DNA of 64,000 bases from Patescibacteria group bacterium (lineage in GTDB: Bacteria > Patescibacteriota > UBA1384 > JBBRAU01): assembly GCA_038206475.1 (NCBI GenBank), contig JBBRAU010000001.1, positions 3,317 to 67,316 of the forward strand, written 5' to 3'. The notes under the pieces were generated by a model, which did not search any database, was not told the origin of the DNA, and was given only the letters and a program-made list of their open reading frames with translations. Of the stretch, positions 39,147 through 60,051 are shown in pieces; within the stretch, counting starts at the first letter, position 1, and every line of letters begins with the position of its first letter. The translations under genes and the position numbers were made by a program.

Positions 39147-39584
39147 CTAGCCTTCAATCAGAAGAATGTCTAACTCGCTCACGCGGCGAAAGTCGCGGTC
39201 AGCGGTGACAAAGCCGGTGGCGCCTTGCTCTACAAGGGAGGCCAGGATAAGGCCGTCAACGACTTTCAGTCGGTTGCTTGCGGTGATCCGCGCCGCCAGT
39301 CGGGCCGTGGAGAGGCTGATTGGCGCAAACAAAAAGCGGCCATTGGCCAGCGCTATTTCGTATTGGCCAACCACGTCGGGCCGGTTATCTTGCGCTGGTT
39401 TCAAGGTCAACTCCGCCACTGAAACAACGGACAAATAGAGCAGCGTTTGATGATGGTCGAGCGCCTGTAAGAGTTGTGCCACCTGTCTCTTGTAGCTTGC
39501 CAGCTGCTCGACCAGCGCAATCAGAATATTGGTGTCGAGGCCAACCTTCTTGTGCTGGCCCAGAAATTGCTCAACTGCGGTCAC
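39147..39584 (-). CDS. vapC: PIN-domain ribonuclease toxin VapC
   Basis: N-terminal D (GLDTNILIA) and conserved acidic residues. 4-codon overlap with the upstream antitoxin gene. Confidence 0.8.
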   Translation of the reverse strand: MTAVEQFLGQHKKVGLDTNILIALVEQLASYKRQVAQLLQALDHHQTLLYLSVVSVAELTLKPAQDNRPDVVGQYEIALANGRFLFAPISLSTARLAARITASNRLKVVDGLILASLVEQGATGFVTADRDFRRVSELDILLIEG

Positions 39585-39825
39585 GGCGCAATCCCCGAAC
39601 GTAGCGAACCGGATCGACTTTCTTCCACAACTCGGGGTGCGGATCGTCTAAATCGGCCAGCCACTCCTGCCAACTAGGCTTTTTAGTTGAAACTTTGCGC
39701 ACCAATAGTGCTTCAGCTCCCCACGGTAGCCACTCGATTTGACTCCCCTCATGCAATTGGTACTGCTCCCGCAGCTCTTGCGGAATAACCGTCTGGCCCT
39801 TGCTGCTTATTTTTGTCTTACTCAT
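39571..39825 (-). CDS. vapB: AbrB/MazE/SpoVT-type antitoxin (VapB-like)
   Basis: SSKGQTVIPQELRE looped-hinge helix motif. Confidence 0.75.
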   Translation of the reverse strand: MSKTKISSKGQTVIPQELREQYQLHEGSQIEWLPWGAEALLVRKVSTKKPSWQEWLADLDDPHPELWKKVDPVRYVRGLRRDRS

Positions 39826-39913
39826 GTCTTACTCCAATCTTACTATGATTATCTGACGCTTTGGCACTTCTGTCAATACTGACAGTTTGGCCGCTTTGAC
39901 GTATACTTTGGAC

Positions 39914-42900
39914 ATGCCAGAGTTTGTTCATCTGCACGTCCATTCGCAGTATTCGCTGCTTGATGGCATGGGTAAAATCCCTGATTTAATTGGCCGGGCC
40001 AAAGAGTTAAACATGCCGGCAATCGCTCTGACTGACCACGGGGTGATGCACGGCTCAATTGAGTTCTACAAAGCGGCCAAAAAGGCGGGCATTAAGCCGA
40101 TTGTCGGCTGTGAAATTTACATCTCTCCGCGCAAGATGACGGACAAAGAGGGCAAAGTGGACCAAAAAGCCTTCCACTTAACGCTCCTCGCCAAAAACGC
40201 CGTCGGCTACAAAAACTTAATTGCTCTCACCTCGGCCGGTCACACGCTTGGCTACTACTACAAACCGCGCGTGGACAAAGCGTTCTTGCGCCAGCATGCG
40301 GAGGGCTTAATTTGCTTAACCGGCTGCTTGGCGGCCGAGATTCCGCGGGCAATCATCGCCGGCGATGAGGCCAAAGTAGATGCCCTGGTTAAAGAGTACT
40401 TTGCCATTTTTGGCAAAGACAACGTCTACTTTGAAATTCAGGACCACCCTAACATTGAAGAGTGCCAAAAAATTGTCGAGGTGGTGCCACAGCTCGCCAA
40501 AAAGTACGGCCGGCCGGTTGTTGCCACCAACGATGTTCACTACGTGCGGGCTGAGGATGCAGAGGCACAAGATGTGCTGGTCTGTATTTCGACCGGCAAG
40601 CAATTGGCCGATACGAATCGCATGAGCTACATCGGCACTGATTACTCGCTGCGCACGGCAGAGGACATCGCCGCGGCCTTCAAGCAGGTACCAGAGTCCC
40701 TGGAGACAACGCTACACATTGCCGAGCAATGCAACTTGGAGCTGGAGCTTGGCAACACCATTTTGCCGCACTTCCCCGTGCCGGAGGGCGAAACGCAGGA
40801 CTCGTGGTTTGAAACGCAGTGCTGGCAGGGTTTGATGGCCAGGTACGGCGAGCAAGTGCCAGAAGGGCACAAAGAACGCCTCAAGTACGAGTTGGGCGTT
40901 ATTCGCCAGATGGGCTACGCCGCCTACTTTCTGATTGTCCAAGACTTTGTGCTCTGGGCCAAGAGCCGCAACATTGCCGTCGGTCCCGGTCGCGGTTCAG
41001 CCGCTGGCTCAATTGCCGCCTACTGCCTGCAAATAACCGATTTAGACCCGATGGAACACCGCCTGCTGTTTGAGCGCTTCCTGAACCCTGAGCGCGTCAG
41101 CATGCCGGATATTGATATGGATTTTGAGGACACCCGGCGAGGAGAAGTGATTGGCTATGTAACGCAAAAATACGGGCCCGACCATGTCTCGCAAATCTGC
41201 ACCTTTGGTACAATGGCAGCTAAAAACGCCGTACGCGACGTGGGACGCGTACTTGGTATTCCCTACGGCGACGTCGACACCATCGCTAAGCTCATTCCAG
41301 AAAAAATGAACTTGAAACAGGCCCGTTCGGCCACGCCAGAGCTGGAGATGTTGATTAAAACCGATCCTAGAATTAGCCAACTCTACGGCTTTGCCGAGAA
41401 GCTCGAAGGCAACGCCCGCCACACCGGCATGCATGCGGCCGGTATTGTGATCTCACGCGAACCGCTGACGGAATACTTGCCGGTCATGGCCGCAACCAAA
41501 GGTGAGGCTGAGCTGGTGACGCAGTACGCCATGGGCGAAATTGAGGACATTGGCCTCCTCAAGATGGACTTTTTGGGTCTGGCCAACCTATCGATCATCC
41601 AAAATGCAGTGCGCTTAATTGAAGAGACGCACGGCAAAAAGATTGATATCGCCAACGTGCCACTTGACGATAAAGAAACCTACAAACTGCTGTCGCGGGC
41701 TGAGACGATGGGCGTGTTTCAAATTGAGTGTTTAGCCGGTGATACCATCGTCTCCAACACAACCATCAAGAAACTGCACGAGAAGCAGCATAAAAAAACG
41801 TTGGAATCGGTGTATGTAGACGAGGGTGCGGTGCACCACAATCGGATTCTGGGCGTCGTGAAAAGCGGCAAAAAACCGGTATATACCGTGATTGCCGAAA
41901 ATGGCTGGTGTATTAAAGCAAGCGCCAAGCATAAGTTTCTGACCGACCAGGGCTGGCAAGAGCTGCAAGCCATTCGGCCGGGCGACAAGGTTCTTATGAA
42001 AAACAAGGCGAAACATGTGGTGTTTAATGAGTGTCGGAGTTGCGGCCAGCAAATCAGCGGTCAAAAGGAAGGTCAGAGCCGCTACTGCTACACTTGCTCG
42101 GCCCGTCACTACAGCAACCCCAGCAAACCGATCTCCCGGGCAAAAATTACTGCTGCCCGCTTGGCCTACTACGCGGATGGTCATGAGCCTTGGAATAAAG
42201 GCAAGGATGTCCACTCTGATGAGCGCGTTCGAGCAACCGGCCAGAAAATTAGCCGAGCCTTGACTGGCCTGACTTTAGAAATGAAATTTGGACCGGAAGA
42301 AGCGGCGAGAAAAAGGCACGAGCAGAGCATGCGGATGTCTGGCCGAGGTAACCACATGTTTGGCGTGAAGCCACCGCATCGCAAAGGCGGCTATCGGGCC
42401 GATTTGGGGCACTACGTACGCTCAAATTGGGAAGCAGACTTTGCCCGTATCCTTAATCTTCACCACATTCCCTACCTGTATGAACCCCACACCTTTCCGG
42501 TTGAACTGCCAGACGGCCAAGTTGCCAACTACACCCCCGACTTTTATGTGCCCTCCGAAGAGACCTACTACGAAATTAAAGGTTTTATGCGCGACATTGA
42601 CCAGGCGAAAATGGATGCCTTTGAAACCCAGTACCCGCATAAAAAATTGGTTTTAATTAATACCACTACCTTTGCTGAGTTTGCGATGACCTACCGCTCG
42701 CTGGTGGCTTGGGAGTGCCCAAAGATTCCTGAGCAACAGTTTGCTTTTCAGACCGTGCAAGCAATTCGCCCGGCCGGCATTGAGGAAACCTACGACATCA
42801 GTATGGAGGCACCAGGCAATAATTTTGTGGCCAACGGTTTTGTCGTCCATAATTCTGCCGGCATGCGGCGTTACTTAGCAGAGCTCAAGCCCACCAAGTT

Positions 42901-44584
42901 TACCGATATTGTGGCCATGGTGGCGCTCTACCGTCCGGGGCCGATGGAACGTATTCCAACGTACATCAACAGAAAGCACGGCCGCGAGACGGTCACGTAT
43001 TTGCACCCGGATTTGAAAGATATTTTGGAGGATACCTACGGCGTCTTAGTTTACCAAGAACAGGTGCAGGAGATGGCCCAAAAGTTTGCCGGCTTTTCAC
43101 TGGGCGAGGGCTACCTACTGGTCAAAGCGGTCGCCAAAAAAAAGAAAGAGCTGCTGGACGAGCAGCGCATTAAATTCATAGAGGGGGCCAAAAAAATTGG
43201 CAACTCCGAGCAGATGGCGGGACAGCTGTTTGACTTCATCGAGCCGTTTGCCCGCTACGGTTTTAACCGGGCCCACTCGGCCTGCTACGCCTACATTGCT
43301 TACCAAACAGCCTACCTGAAGGCGCACTATCCGGCGGAGTTTATGGCTGCCTGGCTGATTGCCGAGCAACAAAACATCGAAAAGATGACCGTAGCACTTG
43401 AGGAGTGCGAGCGGATGAAATTGCCGATGCTGCCACCGGACATTAACCGCTCCCGCGTTGATTTTGCCGTTGTCCGGGACAAAGCAGCTGAAGGCCGCGA
43501 AGAGATCTTGTTTGGCCTCTCGGCAATCAAGAATGTCGGTATCTCGCCGGCGACAGCCATTGTCGCCGAGCGTGAACAACATGGGCCGTTTGATTCACTA
43601 ACCGACTTATTGCGCCGGCTAGGCACGAAACACCTCAACAAAAAGGTACTAGAAGCTCTGGCACAAGTCGGGGCGCTTGACCGCTTCGGTGAACGCAACG
43701 TCCTAGTCCTGGGGGTTGAGGAGATGACGATCTACATGCATAACGCCGAGAAACAACTTAGCGCCAACATGGACAGCCTGTTCGGTGAGGCGATTGCCGT
43801 CGAGGAGCCAGAGCTCTATCTGCCGCCGCAGCCGCCAGCGGATATTACGGTCCAGTTAGGTTGGGAGAAGGGCTTACTCGGCATTTATCTGTCAGAACAC
43901 CCGGCGACCAGCGTTGCTAAACGGCTGGGCTCGACTATTCAGACTATCGGCCAATTCAGTCTGCGTGACCGTGACAAAATGGTTCGCTTGGCCGGCGTAG
44001 TCGGCAGCGTCAAAAAAATCATCACTAAATCTAATCAAGCCATGGCTTTTGCCAGGTTAGAGGACGCCAGCGGCAACATTGAGGCCGTCGTTTTTCCAAG
44101 CGTGCTCGAGACGACTCATGACTTTTGGCAAACCGAGCGGCTGCTGATTGTGACTGGCCGCTTAAACGACAAAGACGGCTCGCTGAAGCTATTGGTTGAG
44201 TCCGTCATTCCTTATACCGATGAGCTTGACCCGACCAATTTGCCGGAAGTGTCGCAAACGTCGGTCCGACGTCCCCGGCCGAGCGGCCAACCAGACGCAG
44301 TTATGAACCAGGCAGCCGTATCAGCGAGCTCACCCGTCGATGTGAGTCTGCCACCAAGTATCAGTGCGGTGCGACTACAAATGAACGGCAATTTGAGTCG
44401 TCCGCTTTTAGAAGAACTGCGGGGCATTTTAAGCAGCCACAGCGGCAGTGTGCCGATTGTGCTGGCTATCTTGAAGAACAATCAAGAGAAACAGTACCGA
44501 TTGCCAGCCGGCGTTAGCCCAAGTCCACTTTTGAAACGGCAGCTCAGCCGATTGCTTGGCGAGGAAGCGATTGTCCTGCAGTAG
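39914..44584 (+). CDS. dnaE: DNA polymerase III alpha subunit DnaE containing an in-frame 375-aa intein
   Basis: PHP N-terminus (MPEFVHLHVHSQYSLLDG), GVFQIE...SAGMRRYL..., fingers/OB domains. 1556-1565 aa versus ~1180 expected. Confidence 0.9.
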   Translation: MPEFVHLHVHSQYSLLDGMGKIPDLIGRAKELNMPAIALTDHGVMHGSIEFYKAAKKAGIKPIVGCEIYISPRKMTDKEGKVDQKAFHLTLLAKNAVGYKNLIALTSAGHTLGYYYKPRVDKAFLRQHAEGLICLTGCLAAEIPRAIIAGDEAKVDALVKEYFAIFGKDNVYFEIQDHPNIEECQKIVEVVPQLAKKYGRPVVATNDVHYVRAEDAEAQDVLVCISTGKQLADTNRMSYIGTDYSLRTAEDIAAAFKQVPESLETTLHIAEQCNLELELGNTILPHFPVPEGETQDSWFETQCWQGLMARYGEQVPEGHKERLKYELGVIRQMGYAAYFLIVQDFVLWAKSRNIAVGPGRGSAAGSIAAYCLQITDLDPMEHRLLFERFLNPERVSMPDIDMDFEDTRRGEVIGYVTQKYGPDHVSQICTFGTMAAKNAVRDVGRVLGIPYGDVDTIAKLIPEKMNLKQARSATPELEMLIKTDPRISQLYGFAEKLEGNARHTGMHAAGIVISREPLTEYLPVMAATKGEAELVTQYAMGEIEDIGLLKMDFLGLANLSIIQNAVRLIEETHGKKIDIANVPLDDKETYKLLSRAETMGVFQIECLAGDTIVSNTTIKKLHEKQHKKTLESVYVDEGAVHHNRILGVVKSGKKPVYTVIAENGWCIKASAKHKFLTDQGWQELQAIRPGDKVLMKNKAKHVVFNECRSCGQQISGQKEGQSRYCYTCSARHYSNPSKPISRAKITAARLAYYADGHEPWNKGKDVHSDERVRATGQKISRALTGLTLEMKFGPEEAARKRHEQSMRMSGRGNHMFGVKPPHRKGGYRADLGHYVRSNWEADFARILNLHHIPYLYEPHTFPVELPDGQVANYTPDFYVPSEETYYEIKGFMRDIDQAKMDAFETQYPHKKLVLINTTTFAEFAMTYRSLVAWECPKIPEQQFAFQTVQAIRPAGIEETYDISMEAPGNNFVANGFVVHNSAGMRRYLAELKPTKFTDIVAMVALYRPGPMERIPTYINRKHGRETVTYLHPDLKDILEDTYGVLVYQEQVQEMAQKFAGFSLGEGYLLVKAVAKKKKELLDEQRIKFIEGAKKIGNSEQMAGQLFDFIEPFARYGFNRAHSACYAYIAYQTAYLKAHYPAEFMAAWLIAEQQNIEKMTVALEECERMKLPMLPPDINRSRVDFAVVRDKAAEGREEILFGLSAIKNVGISPATAIVAEREQHGPFDSLTDLLRRLGTKHLNKKVLEALAQVGALDRFGERNVLVLGVEEMTIYMHNAEKQLSANMDSLFGEAIAVEEPELYLPPQPPADITVQLGWEKGLLGIYLSEHPATSVAKRLGSTIQTIGQFSLRDRDKMVRLAGVVGSVKKIITKSNQAMAFARLEDASGNIEAVVFPSVLETTHDFWQTERLLIVTGRLNDKDGSLKLLVESVIPYTDELDPTNLPEVSQTSVRRPRPSGQPDAVMNQAAVSASSPVDVSLPPSISAVRLQMNGNLSRPLLEELRGILSSHSGSVPIVLAILKNNQEKQYRLPAGVSPSPLLKRQLSRLLGEEAIVLQ
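41729..42853 (+). mobile_element. Intein in dnaE (HINT domain plus inserted zinc-ribbon and PD-(D/E)xK-like endonuclease)
   Basis: Block A CLAGDTIV after FQIE. Block B IKASAKHKFLT. Block F/G NNFVANGFVVHN followed by S+1. Exteins rejoin as FQIE|SAGMRRYLAELKP, matching E. coli FQLE|SRGMKDLIKRL. Confidence 0.8.
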
Positions 44585-59963: not shown

Positions 59964-59966
59964 CCC

Positions 59967-60051
59967 GGAGGGTAGTGCGAGTGGCTCGCAACTGGTCTTG
60001 AAAACCAGACCGGCCGCAAGGCTGAAGGTTCGATTCCTTTACCCTCCGCCA
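59967..60051 (+). tRNA. tRNA-Ser (UGA)
   Basis: Manual fold. Acceptor ggagggu/acccucc, anticodon loop cuUGAaa, long variable arm, G73-CCA. Begins 4 nt after the HNH stop. Confidence 0.85.

Follow-up and report, generated by a model that had tools for sequence, protein, structure and literature searches.

A 64,000-nt stretch of DNA from a Patescibacteria group bacterium (contig JBBRAU010000001.1; this whole stretch is hereafter the window) carries a dnaE gene, encoding the alpha subunit of DNA polymerase III, in which 375 residues interrupt a conserved motif, raising the question of what this segment is and whether it still moves between genes. The original prediction took it for an intein holding a PD-(D/E)xK-type nuclease. 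In our analysis the insert reads as a class-1 intein, and we consider it likely that the element is mobile and that its homing endonuclease belongs to the T7 endonuclease I family, a nuclease family apparently new for inteins and for homing.

The dnaE precursor occupies 39887..44584 on the forward strand (1565 amino acids plus stop, with a mechanically listed TTG start). Pfam recognizes PHP, DNA_pol3_alpha, HHH_6 and OB-fold domains in this open reading frame (ORF), and DNA_pol3_finger split into two stretches. The translation agrees exactly with the boundaries first proposed: an N-extein (DnaE residues 1-614; 39887..41728, +) ending in ETMGVFQIE is followed in frame, with no frameshifts or stops, by 375 residues running from CLAGDTIV to NGFVVHN (41729..42853, +), and then by a C-extein (42854..44584, +) that starts with SAGMRRYL, its serine being the putative +1 nucleophile, and that holds the rest of the fingers, the HhH and the OB domains. 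After deletion of the insert, a 300-residue stretch centred on the junction aligned without a gap at the junction to DnaE of T. aquaticus (E=2.7e-86; GVFQLESGGM) and of E. coli (E=1.2e-73; AVFQLESRGM), as expected of contiguous exteins. The insertion point falls in the FQ(L/I)E|S(G/A)GM motif of the DnaE fingers region, about 133 residues upstream of the ARY|GFN(K/R) region, which we take to be the position of the cyanobacterial split intein (the Ssp DnaE junction). A strong foreign signal in base composition is not seen in the intein (51.1% GC, against 54.1% in the exteins and 55.4% in the whole window).

Two halves of a HINT splicing domain bracket the insert, with blocks A, B and F/G where they had been predicted. 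Pfam Intein_splicing (PF14890) matches at 58.4 bits (cut-off 35.8), TIGR01445 at 24.8 (cut-off 24.5) and TIGR01443 at 21.0 (cut-off 15.6). The top PDB match of the splicing part is the Ssp DnaB mini-intein, which aligns in two stretches (intein residues 36-91 and 326-374) around a central module, placing that module where an intein's endonuclease usually sits. The N half (residues 1-97; 41729..42019, +) holds block A (CLAGDTIV) and block B (IKASAKHKFLT, with S65 and H68) and aligns to residues 47-102 of the Ssp DnaB mini-intein, while the C half (residues 333-375; 42725..42853, +) holds block F (EETYD(356)ISMEAPGNNF) and block G (VANGFVVHN) and aligns to residues 112-159. Block B, S65-A-K-H68, shows a conservative replacement of the usual Thr by Ser; among 23 full-length relatives, 18 have T at this position and 5 have S. 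C1, H68, T72, D356, H374 and N375 are invariant in all 23, and the +1 residue is Ser in every case. Together with the curated profiles, the junction residues (C1, S65/H68, D356, H374-N375 and the +1 Ser) identify the insert as a predicted class-1 intein. That it might instead be a lineage-specific insertion domain, retained in the mature DnaE, is a reading to which we give next to no credence: the segment passes the curated intein models, its splice-site residues are all present and invariant, it splits both a near-universally conserved motif and the Pfam finger domain, and an allelic 162-residue mini-intein occupies the same position in another genome.

DnaE is a recognized intein host with a hotspot in its fingers, in keeping with the proposal that the site is a homing hotspot. 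A 2016 survey counts 116 PolIII-alpha inteins at sites a-g (PMC4760082); Patescibacteria are not among its listed clades, and a term search of its text turned up nothing on types of endonuclease.

Between blocks B and F we could recognize three parts. The first is a four-Cys zinc ribbon (residues 98-130; 42020..42118, +), C102-x2-C105 ... C120-x2-C123, which had been noted before as a CxxC...CxxC ribbon; it is marked by Cys conservation (retained in 23/23, 23/23, 23/23 and 22/23 relatives) and by weak zinc-ribbon Pfam matches only, and its cysteines would bind a metal ion. A helical linker follows (residues 131-214; 42119..42370, +), delineated by predicted helices and by NUMOD3-like motifs (PWNKGK at 154 and GRGNHMFG at 205), and this is presumed to be a DNA-binding tether. 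NUMOD3 (PF07460) scores 11.4 bits in the window copy against a cut-off of 20.4, with the related copies at L001 (20.7) and L003 (21.0) just above it and that at L002 (19.9) just below. The third part is a PD-(D/E)xK core (residues 215-332; 42371..42724, +) with the motifs RSNWE(235), YTPD(271)F and YE(282)IK(284)G, from which the predicted catalytic residues are E235 (42431-42433, +), D271 (42539-42541, +), E282 (42572-42574, +) and K284 (42578-42580, +). D271, E282 and K284 are invariant among the 23 intein relatives, and E235 is present in at least 22. A structure prediction of the central module gave a core with a predicted local distance difference test score (pLDDT) >90, and its matches in a fold library were PD-(D/E)xK folds.

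By sequence, this core belongs with T7 endonuclease I; the likeness to Hjc/TnsA-type enzymes suggested earlier holds at the level of the fold, but not of the sequence family. Taken alone, the window copy matches Phage_endo_I (PF05367) at 18.0 bits (E=0.0024; cut-off 29.1) and the PHROG families 'endonuclease' and 'Holliday junction resolvase' at about E=1e-11. Its pairwise PDB match to T7 endonuclease I (2pfj) is weak (E=0.24) and aligns RSNWE with RSGLE, YTPDF with YTPDF and YYEIKG with FVET(K)G. Relatives score 20.6-33.4 bits against PF05367, with P0009, P0010 and P0092 above the cut-off, a level that 8 of the 9 intein-type copies scored do not reach (the exception being P0092). A profile of 68 family members retrieved T7 endonuclease I (1m0d) as its first PDB match (E=3.9e-14, 56.2 bits), ahead of Bax1 (3e-5), and hhalign aligned the same family profile to T7 gp3 with a probability of 98.3% (E=1.7e-14; residues 16-93 of the gp3 sequence used agree with the 2pfj alignment except for the K67A of that entry). 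E235, D271, E282 and K284 align to RSGLE, YTPDF and VETKG of T7, are present in 149-153 of 153 family members and correspond to gp3 E20, D55, E65 and K67. Sub-threshold for the single sequence, the homology of the core to T7 endonuclease I is settled by the 68-member profile.

Other identities for the module were rejected. In the insert, neither LAGLIDADG nor HNH had a Pfam or NCBIfam match at E<=1, in line with their claimed absence, the sole HNH-labelled match being PHROG 20467, which is weak (E=0.045-0.11) and confined to the zinc ribbon. Vsr and DUF559 (the EDxHD family) and I-Ssp6803I (PF11645) likewise had no Pfam match at E<=1, and NCBIfam has no model that matches the nuclease module.

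Canonical inteins with a nested endonuclease (PI-SceI, the native Ssp DnaB intein, PI-MtuI) share with the window element the HINT scaffold, the class-1 residues, an essential replication host, a highly conserved motif as insertion site and an endonuclease placed in frame between blocks B and F, but theirs is of the LAGLIDADG or, rarely, the HNH type, whereas the window module is a PD-(D/E)xK enzyme of T7 endonuclease I type with its own zinc ribbon and NUMOD3-like tether. Inteins and homing endonucleases are well understood as selfish elements. Reviews divide homing endonucleases into LAGLIDADG, HNH, His-Cys box and GIY-YIG types; in inteins LAGLIDADG predominates and HNH is found in few (PMC7765530, PMC5050341). 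GIY-YIG enzymes, like Vsr-like ones, are described at split-intein loci as separate genes. T7 endonuclease I itself (gp3; PF05367; PDB 1m0d, 2pfj), with which the core shares the aligned motifs RSxxE, YTPDF and ExKG, is a stand-alone, structure-selective Holliday-junction resolvase that forms a domain-swapped dimer and has no sequence-specific DNA-binding module (PMC3424549). The window core, unlike T7 endonuclease I, sits inside an intein, joined to a zinc ribbon and a NUMOD3-like linker, an arrangement that would imply sequence-directed cutting.

Homing endonucleases with a restriction fold have been described elsewhere, and they differ from the window enzyme in several respects. The EDxHD/Vsr-like enzymes (I-Bth0305I and the 'fractured gene' enzymes of Dassa et al. 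2009) use a His general base rather than the classical E...PD...ExK set, and they are described as separate ORFs between split-intein halves, as lying in introns or as free-standing (PMC2677866, PMC3239194, PMC3424549), in contrast to the in-frame position of the window nuclease within a contiguous intein. I-Ssp6803I (PF11645), the first PD-(D/E)xK homing endonuclease, shares the use of the classical PD-(D/E)xK motif for homing (PMC3424549); it differs in being encoded by an intron in a tRNA gene, in lacking a zinc-ribbon/NUMOD3 tether and in having no detectable sequence relationship. The design of a catalytic domain on a tether, with NUMOD3 motifs and a small zinc module, is that of I-TevI and I-BmoI (GIY-YIG with NUMOD3 and a zinc-finger linker), and a further likeness is that free-standing relatives in phage genomes adjoin their probable target gene; but GIY-YIG is unrelated to PD-(D/E)xK and the order is reversed, here with DNA binding N-terminal and the nuclease C-terminal. 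We found no description of PF05367/T7-endonuclease-I-type nucleases in homing or in inteins in the literature searched, which took in few subscription journals and not InBase, so that an earlier report may exist.

How widely the element occurs at this site was addressed by an exhaustive search over 1.84 billion cluster representatives (clusters at <=50% identity), which returned 4491 relatives at E<=1e-3, of which 967 reached E<=1e-10 and 23 reached E<=1e-30, mostly free-standing proteins of 150-350 residues; a word-indexed search with the full intein as query gave 5 matches. Most of the 23 best representatives matched over the full module within proteins of 800-2000 residues, and every complete one examined was a DnaE with a 360-393-residue intein at FQ(L/I/F/V)E...GM. 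About 20 clusters, at <=50% identity, have the intein at this one dnaE motif; they come from Patescibacteria bins, other DnaE hosts and a virus-classified contig. Among species-representative genomes there were four full-length copies (56-59% identity, all at FQ(L/F)E|S), hosted by Candidatus Liptonbacteria, Candidatus Paceibacterota, Patescibacteria UBA4067 and an unclassified bin. Across P0015-P0036 the splice junction is found either at E|S, the window's arrangement, or one codon further on (EG|SGM, ES|SGM, SS|SGM), and these two adjacent-codon junctions within one family imply that the insertion point has slid by one residue between subgroups. The reconstituted intein-less junction DNA of the window is ACGATGGGCGTGTTTCAAATTGAG|TCTGCCGGCATGCGGCGTTACTTA; its first and second codon positions are conserved across seven hosts, as expected because the site lies within an invariant protein motif. 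The family is sizeable and is known only from metagenome-derived sequences.

A nuclease-less form occupies the identical dnaE site in a Saccharibacteria bin (L005:6001-6486, CAZNYI010000009.1). This 162-residue mini-intein has a HINT N half 69% identical to the window's, and a 24-residue linker retaining NKAKHV(L/V)(L/F)N replaces residues ~98-332; since that linker retains the first residues of the module, the mini-intein looks like a deletion derivative. At YGFNK|C the same dnaE carries a further intein, which has a LAGLIDADG_3 domain (56.3 bits). Two-intein DnaEs also occur among carriers of the window-type element. On the virus-classified contig (L009) this intein again occupies the same dnaE site, and a second site holds an intein with an HNH-type motif that was read by eye; Pfam reports no HNH domain there. 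The DnaEs P0022 (1984 residues) and P0023 (1947 residues) have a second intein at YGFN(S/K)|C...HN|SH (residues ~1190-1620 and ~1150-1560). We also observed in these two second inteins a motif resembling PD-(D/E)xK (CDFY...YFEMDG / CDFYFEGLYWEMDG), with no Pfam match at E<=0.01; they may contain another in-frame restriction-fold nuclease. The combination of parts extends beyond DnaE: P0092 (558 residues) has an intein (PF14890, 50.7 bits) with a zinc ribbon, NUMOD3 and Phage_endo_I (31.1 bits, above cut-off) that ends in THN|T, and its host protein is not DnaE and has a weak match to an HK97-gp10-like tail component.

Where the nuclease came from is suggested by its free-standing relatives. 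The central module aligns with proteins of ~226-338 residues over their zinc ribbon, helical repeats and nuclease, up to a C-terminal WEGK, the intein counterpart of which, WECPK, is directly followed by HINT block F, so that the module appears to be a complete captured enzyme. In a viral structure library many phage proteins match over 230+ columns, under labels such as 'Endonuclease I', 'Nuclease associated modular domain 3', 'Zinc finger' and Bacillus phage G gp28. We then looked at viral loci in IMG/VR, taking the best 80 of 258 (L009-L088, the intein-bearing L009 included). Free-standing ORFs were found at 76 of these 80, and a DnaE homologue lay within 5 kb of the relative at 64, with dnaE either directly downstream of an endonuclease gene of ~300 residues or ~1.9 kb upstream of one of ~190 residues. 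The tblastn match to several of the viral dnaE genes shows gaps of 1.5-2 kb (for example at L015, L049 and L055), which suggests further inteins or insertions. Another relative, P0009 (L008:5111-8197, an ENA scaffold; also found on a 118.7-kb phage-like contig), is separated by 99 nt from the phage-like dnaE downstream of it, which is itself in two ORFs, with a split intein at GPxRG|SGGGS (GPARG|...|SGGGS) and a 95-nt gap between the halves. This locus resembles published 'fractured genes', but its endonuclease gene stands upstream of the N half and not between the halves. The neighbourhood of P0006 also contains a GIY-YIG/NUMOD3 gene. The intein-type copy was not found among INPHARED sequenced phage genomes, which gave 16 distant matches (<=33% identity) annotated as endonuclease I, Holliday junction resolvase or hypothetical. 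A published model has a free-standing endonuclease invade an intein located in the very gene that it targets (PMC2677866), and the dnaE linkage of the free-standing genes fits this model.

As a separate observation, three proteins in the family (P0041, P0070 and P0138; 834-1186 residues) are Asn/Lys/Ile-rich low-complexity proteins with several tandem copies of the zinc ribbon and nuclease core. Catalytic motifs are degenerate in some of the copies, and these proteins are not inteins.

Is the nuclease under selection, and on whose behalf? Mean pairwise identity among the 23 inteins is highest in the nuclease core (55.7%), compared to 42.4% in HINT-N and 38-41% in the ribbon and linker. In the single close pair with DNA sequence (L003 vs L004; the intein plus 139 and 200 flanking codons), the ratio of nonsynonymous to synonymous substitution rates (dN/dS) was 0.053 in the core, 0.096 in the ribbon and linker and 0.051 in HINT, with 0.036-0.037 in the DnaE exteins, so purifying selection acts on the module. 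In this pair dS is lower in the intein (0.40-0.49) than in the flanking dnaE (0.65-0.78), which may mean that the intein was exchanged more recently than the host gene; since this is a single pair with small counts, we do not rely on it. Such conservation would equally fit a host-beneficial role, in which the intein is fixed and vertically inherited and the nuclease is kept for junction resolution or repair at stalled forks, or as part of a conditional-splicing switch on DnaE activity. T7 endonuclease I, the homologue, resolves junctions, the Patescibacteria hosts show an intein identity (56-59%) that roughly tracks that of the extein (51-57%) and is compatible with vertical descent, and DnaE inteins cluster in functionally critical regions and have been read by others as possibly regulatory (PMC4760082). 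We nonetheless hold this explanation to be unlikely, for the element sits in very different DnaE backgrounds, including the virus-classified contig and two-intein DnaEs, and in identity to the window copy the intein matches or exceeds the flanking, highly conserved DnaE, clearly exceeding it for P0019, P0020 and P0024 (43-49% vs 34-39%). The nuclease is also dispensable to the host, because the site can hold a mini-intein that lacks it and two copies (P0026, WGAD; P0033, YGIKG) have lost a catalytic Glu, and relatives standing free beside dnaE in phage-like neighbourhoods, with a GIY-YIG/NUMOD3 gene near one of them, are typical of selfish homing genes. Full copies, Glu-less copies and the mini-intein together look like stages of a homing cycle.

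If the homing cycle leads to decay after fixation, as its model predicts, the window copy might itself be an inactive relic whose intein splices and no longer homes. Decayed relatives (P0026 and P0033) do exist, and the window copy is the lowest of those scored against PF05367 and NUMOD3. Yet nothing has been lost among its four predicted catalytic residues, its four zinc ligands or the positions that are invariant in the family (G220, R223, D225, L226, Y229, R231, S232, W234, A236, F238 and others), and frameshifts and stops are absent, which makes a relic quite improbable in our estimate. The preferred reading, a functional nuclease in a mobile intein, draws indirectly on the sporadic same-site distribution, the mini-intein, the decayed copies and the purifying selection.

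Several points weigh against that preferred reading. Splicing, zinc binding, the DNA target, the cleavage chemistry and homing are all deduced from sequence comparison, and the window copy itself is below the Pfam cut-offs for PF05367 and NUMOD3, its membership resting on the family profile. No close relative of this genome was found to have a dnaE allele lacking the intein, and as a consequence the presence/absence polymorphism expected of active homing is seen only across distant hosts. The dnaE linkage at 64 of 80 viral loci counts many contigs that nearly duplicate one another, and similarity to a dnaE-intein query set the ranking of the loci. Finally, an AlphaFold model of the whole intein (mean pLDDT 66) resolved the HINT part poorly, because only ~5 sequences covered it, and was discarded in favour of the central-module model.

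With a mobile intein as the preferred reading, the life of the element may be pictured as follows. The dnaE precursor would be translated whole, and the HINT domain would excise the 375 residues by means of Cys1, S65/H68, D356, His374-Asn375 and the +1 Ser, ligating the exteins into a DnaE of 1190 residues. The released intein would then act as a site-specific nuclease: its zinc ribbon and NUMOD3-like helices would bind uninterrupted dnaE around GGNGTNTTYCAR-NTN-GAR|WSN-NNN-GGN-ATG, and a metal-ion site formed by E235/D271/E282/K284 would cut near the bound target. Recombinational repair off the intein-bearing allele would copy the element in (homing). The module itself probably derives from endonuclease genes that stand alone, belong to the same family and typically lie beside dnaE in phage contigs.

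We lean slightly towards a broader proposal, that T7-endonuclease-I-type nucleases with zinc-ribbon and NUMOD3 tethers form a large unrecognized homing endonuclease family, free-standing beside phage dnaE and nested in frame in inteins of DnaE (from Patescibacteria, other bacteria and a viral contig) and of at least one other phage protein. If this is true, a further catalytic lineage joins the known homing endonuclease families, and the locus shows directly how a free-standing endonuclease that targets a gene was captured by an intein in that gene; it would be a clear natural example of such capture because relatives of the captured enzyme adjoin the same target gene in phages. A PD-(D/E)xK core of junction-resolvase type seems here to have become a sequence-directed homing enzyme within an intein, which raises the mechanistic question of how an enzyme whose ancestor needs a domain-swapped dimer would cut a specific duplex site from inside an intein. 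For protein engineering, the family is a source of new DnaE inteins with Ser at +1, among them the natural 162-residue mini-intein, and of a compact modular nuclease scaffold. Since most intein-type copies score below the cut-off of PF05367 and have no NCBIfam model, such genes are liable to be labelled over-long DnaE or to be split at the intein.

Two minor observations concern the rest of the window. Directly upstream of dnaE, two small overlapping ORFs on the reverse strand (145 and 84 residues; 39147-39825) resemble, by eye, a PIN-domain toxin and AbrB/SpoVT-type antitoxin pair. At 59966-60051 (+), Rfam reports tRNA-Sec (53.3 bits, gathering 47) where ARAGORN reports tRNA-Ser with anticodon tga; this is probably an ordinary long-arm tRNA-Ser.

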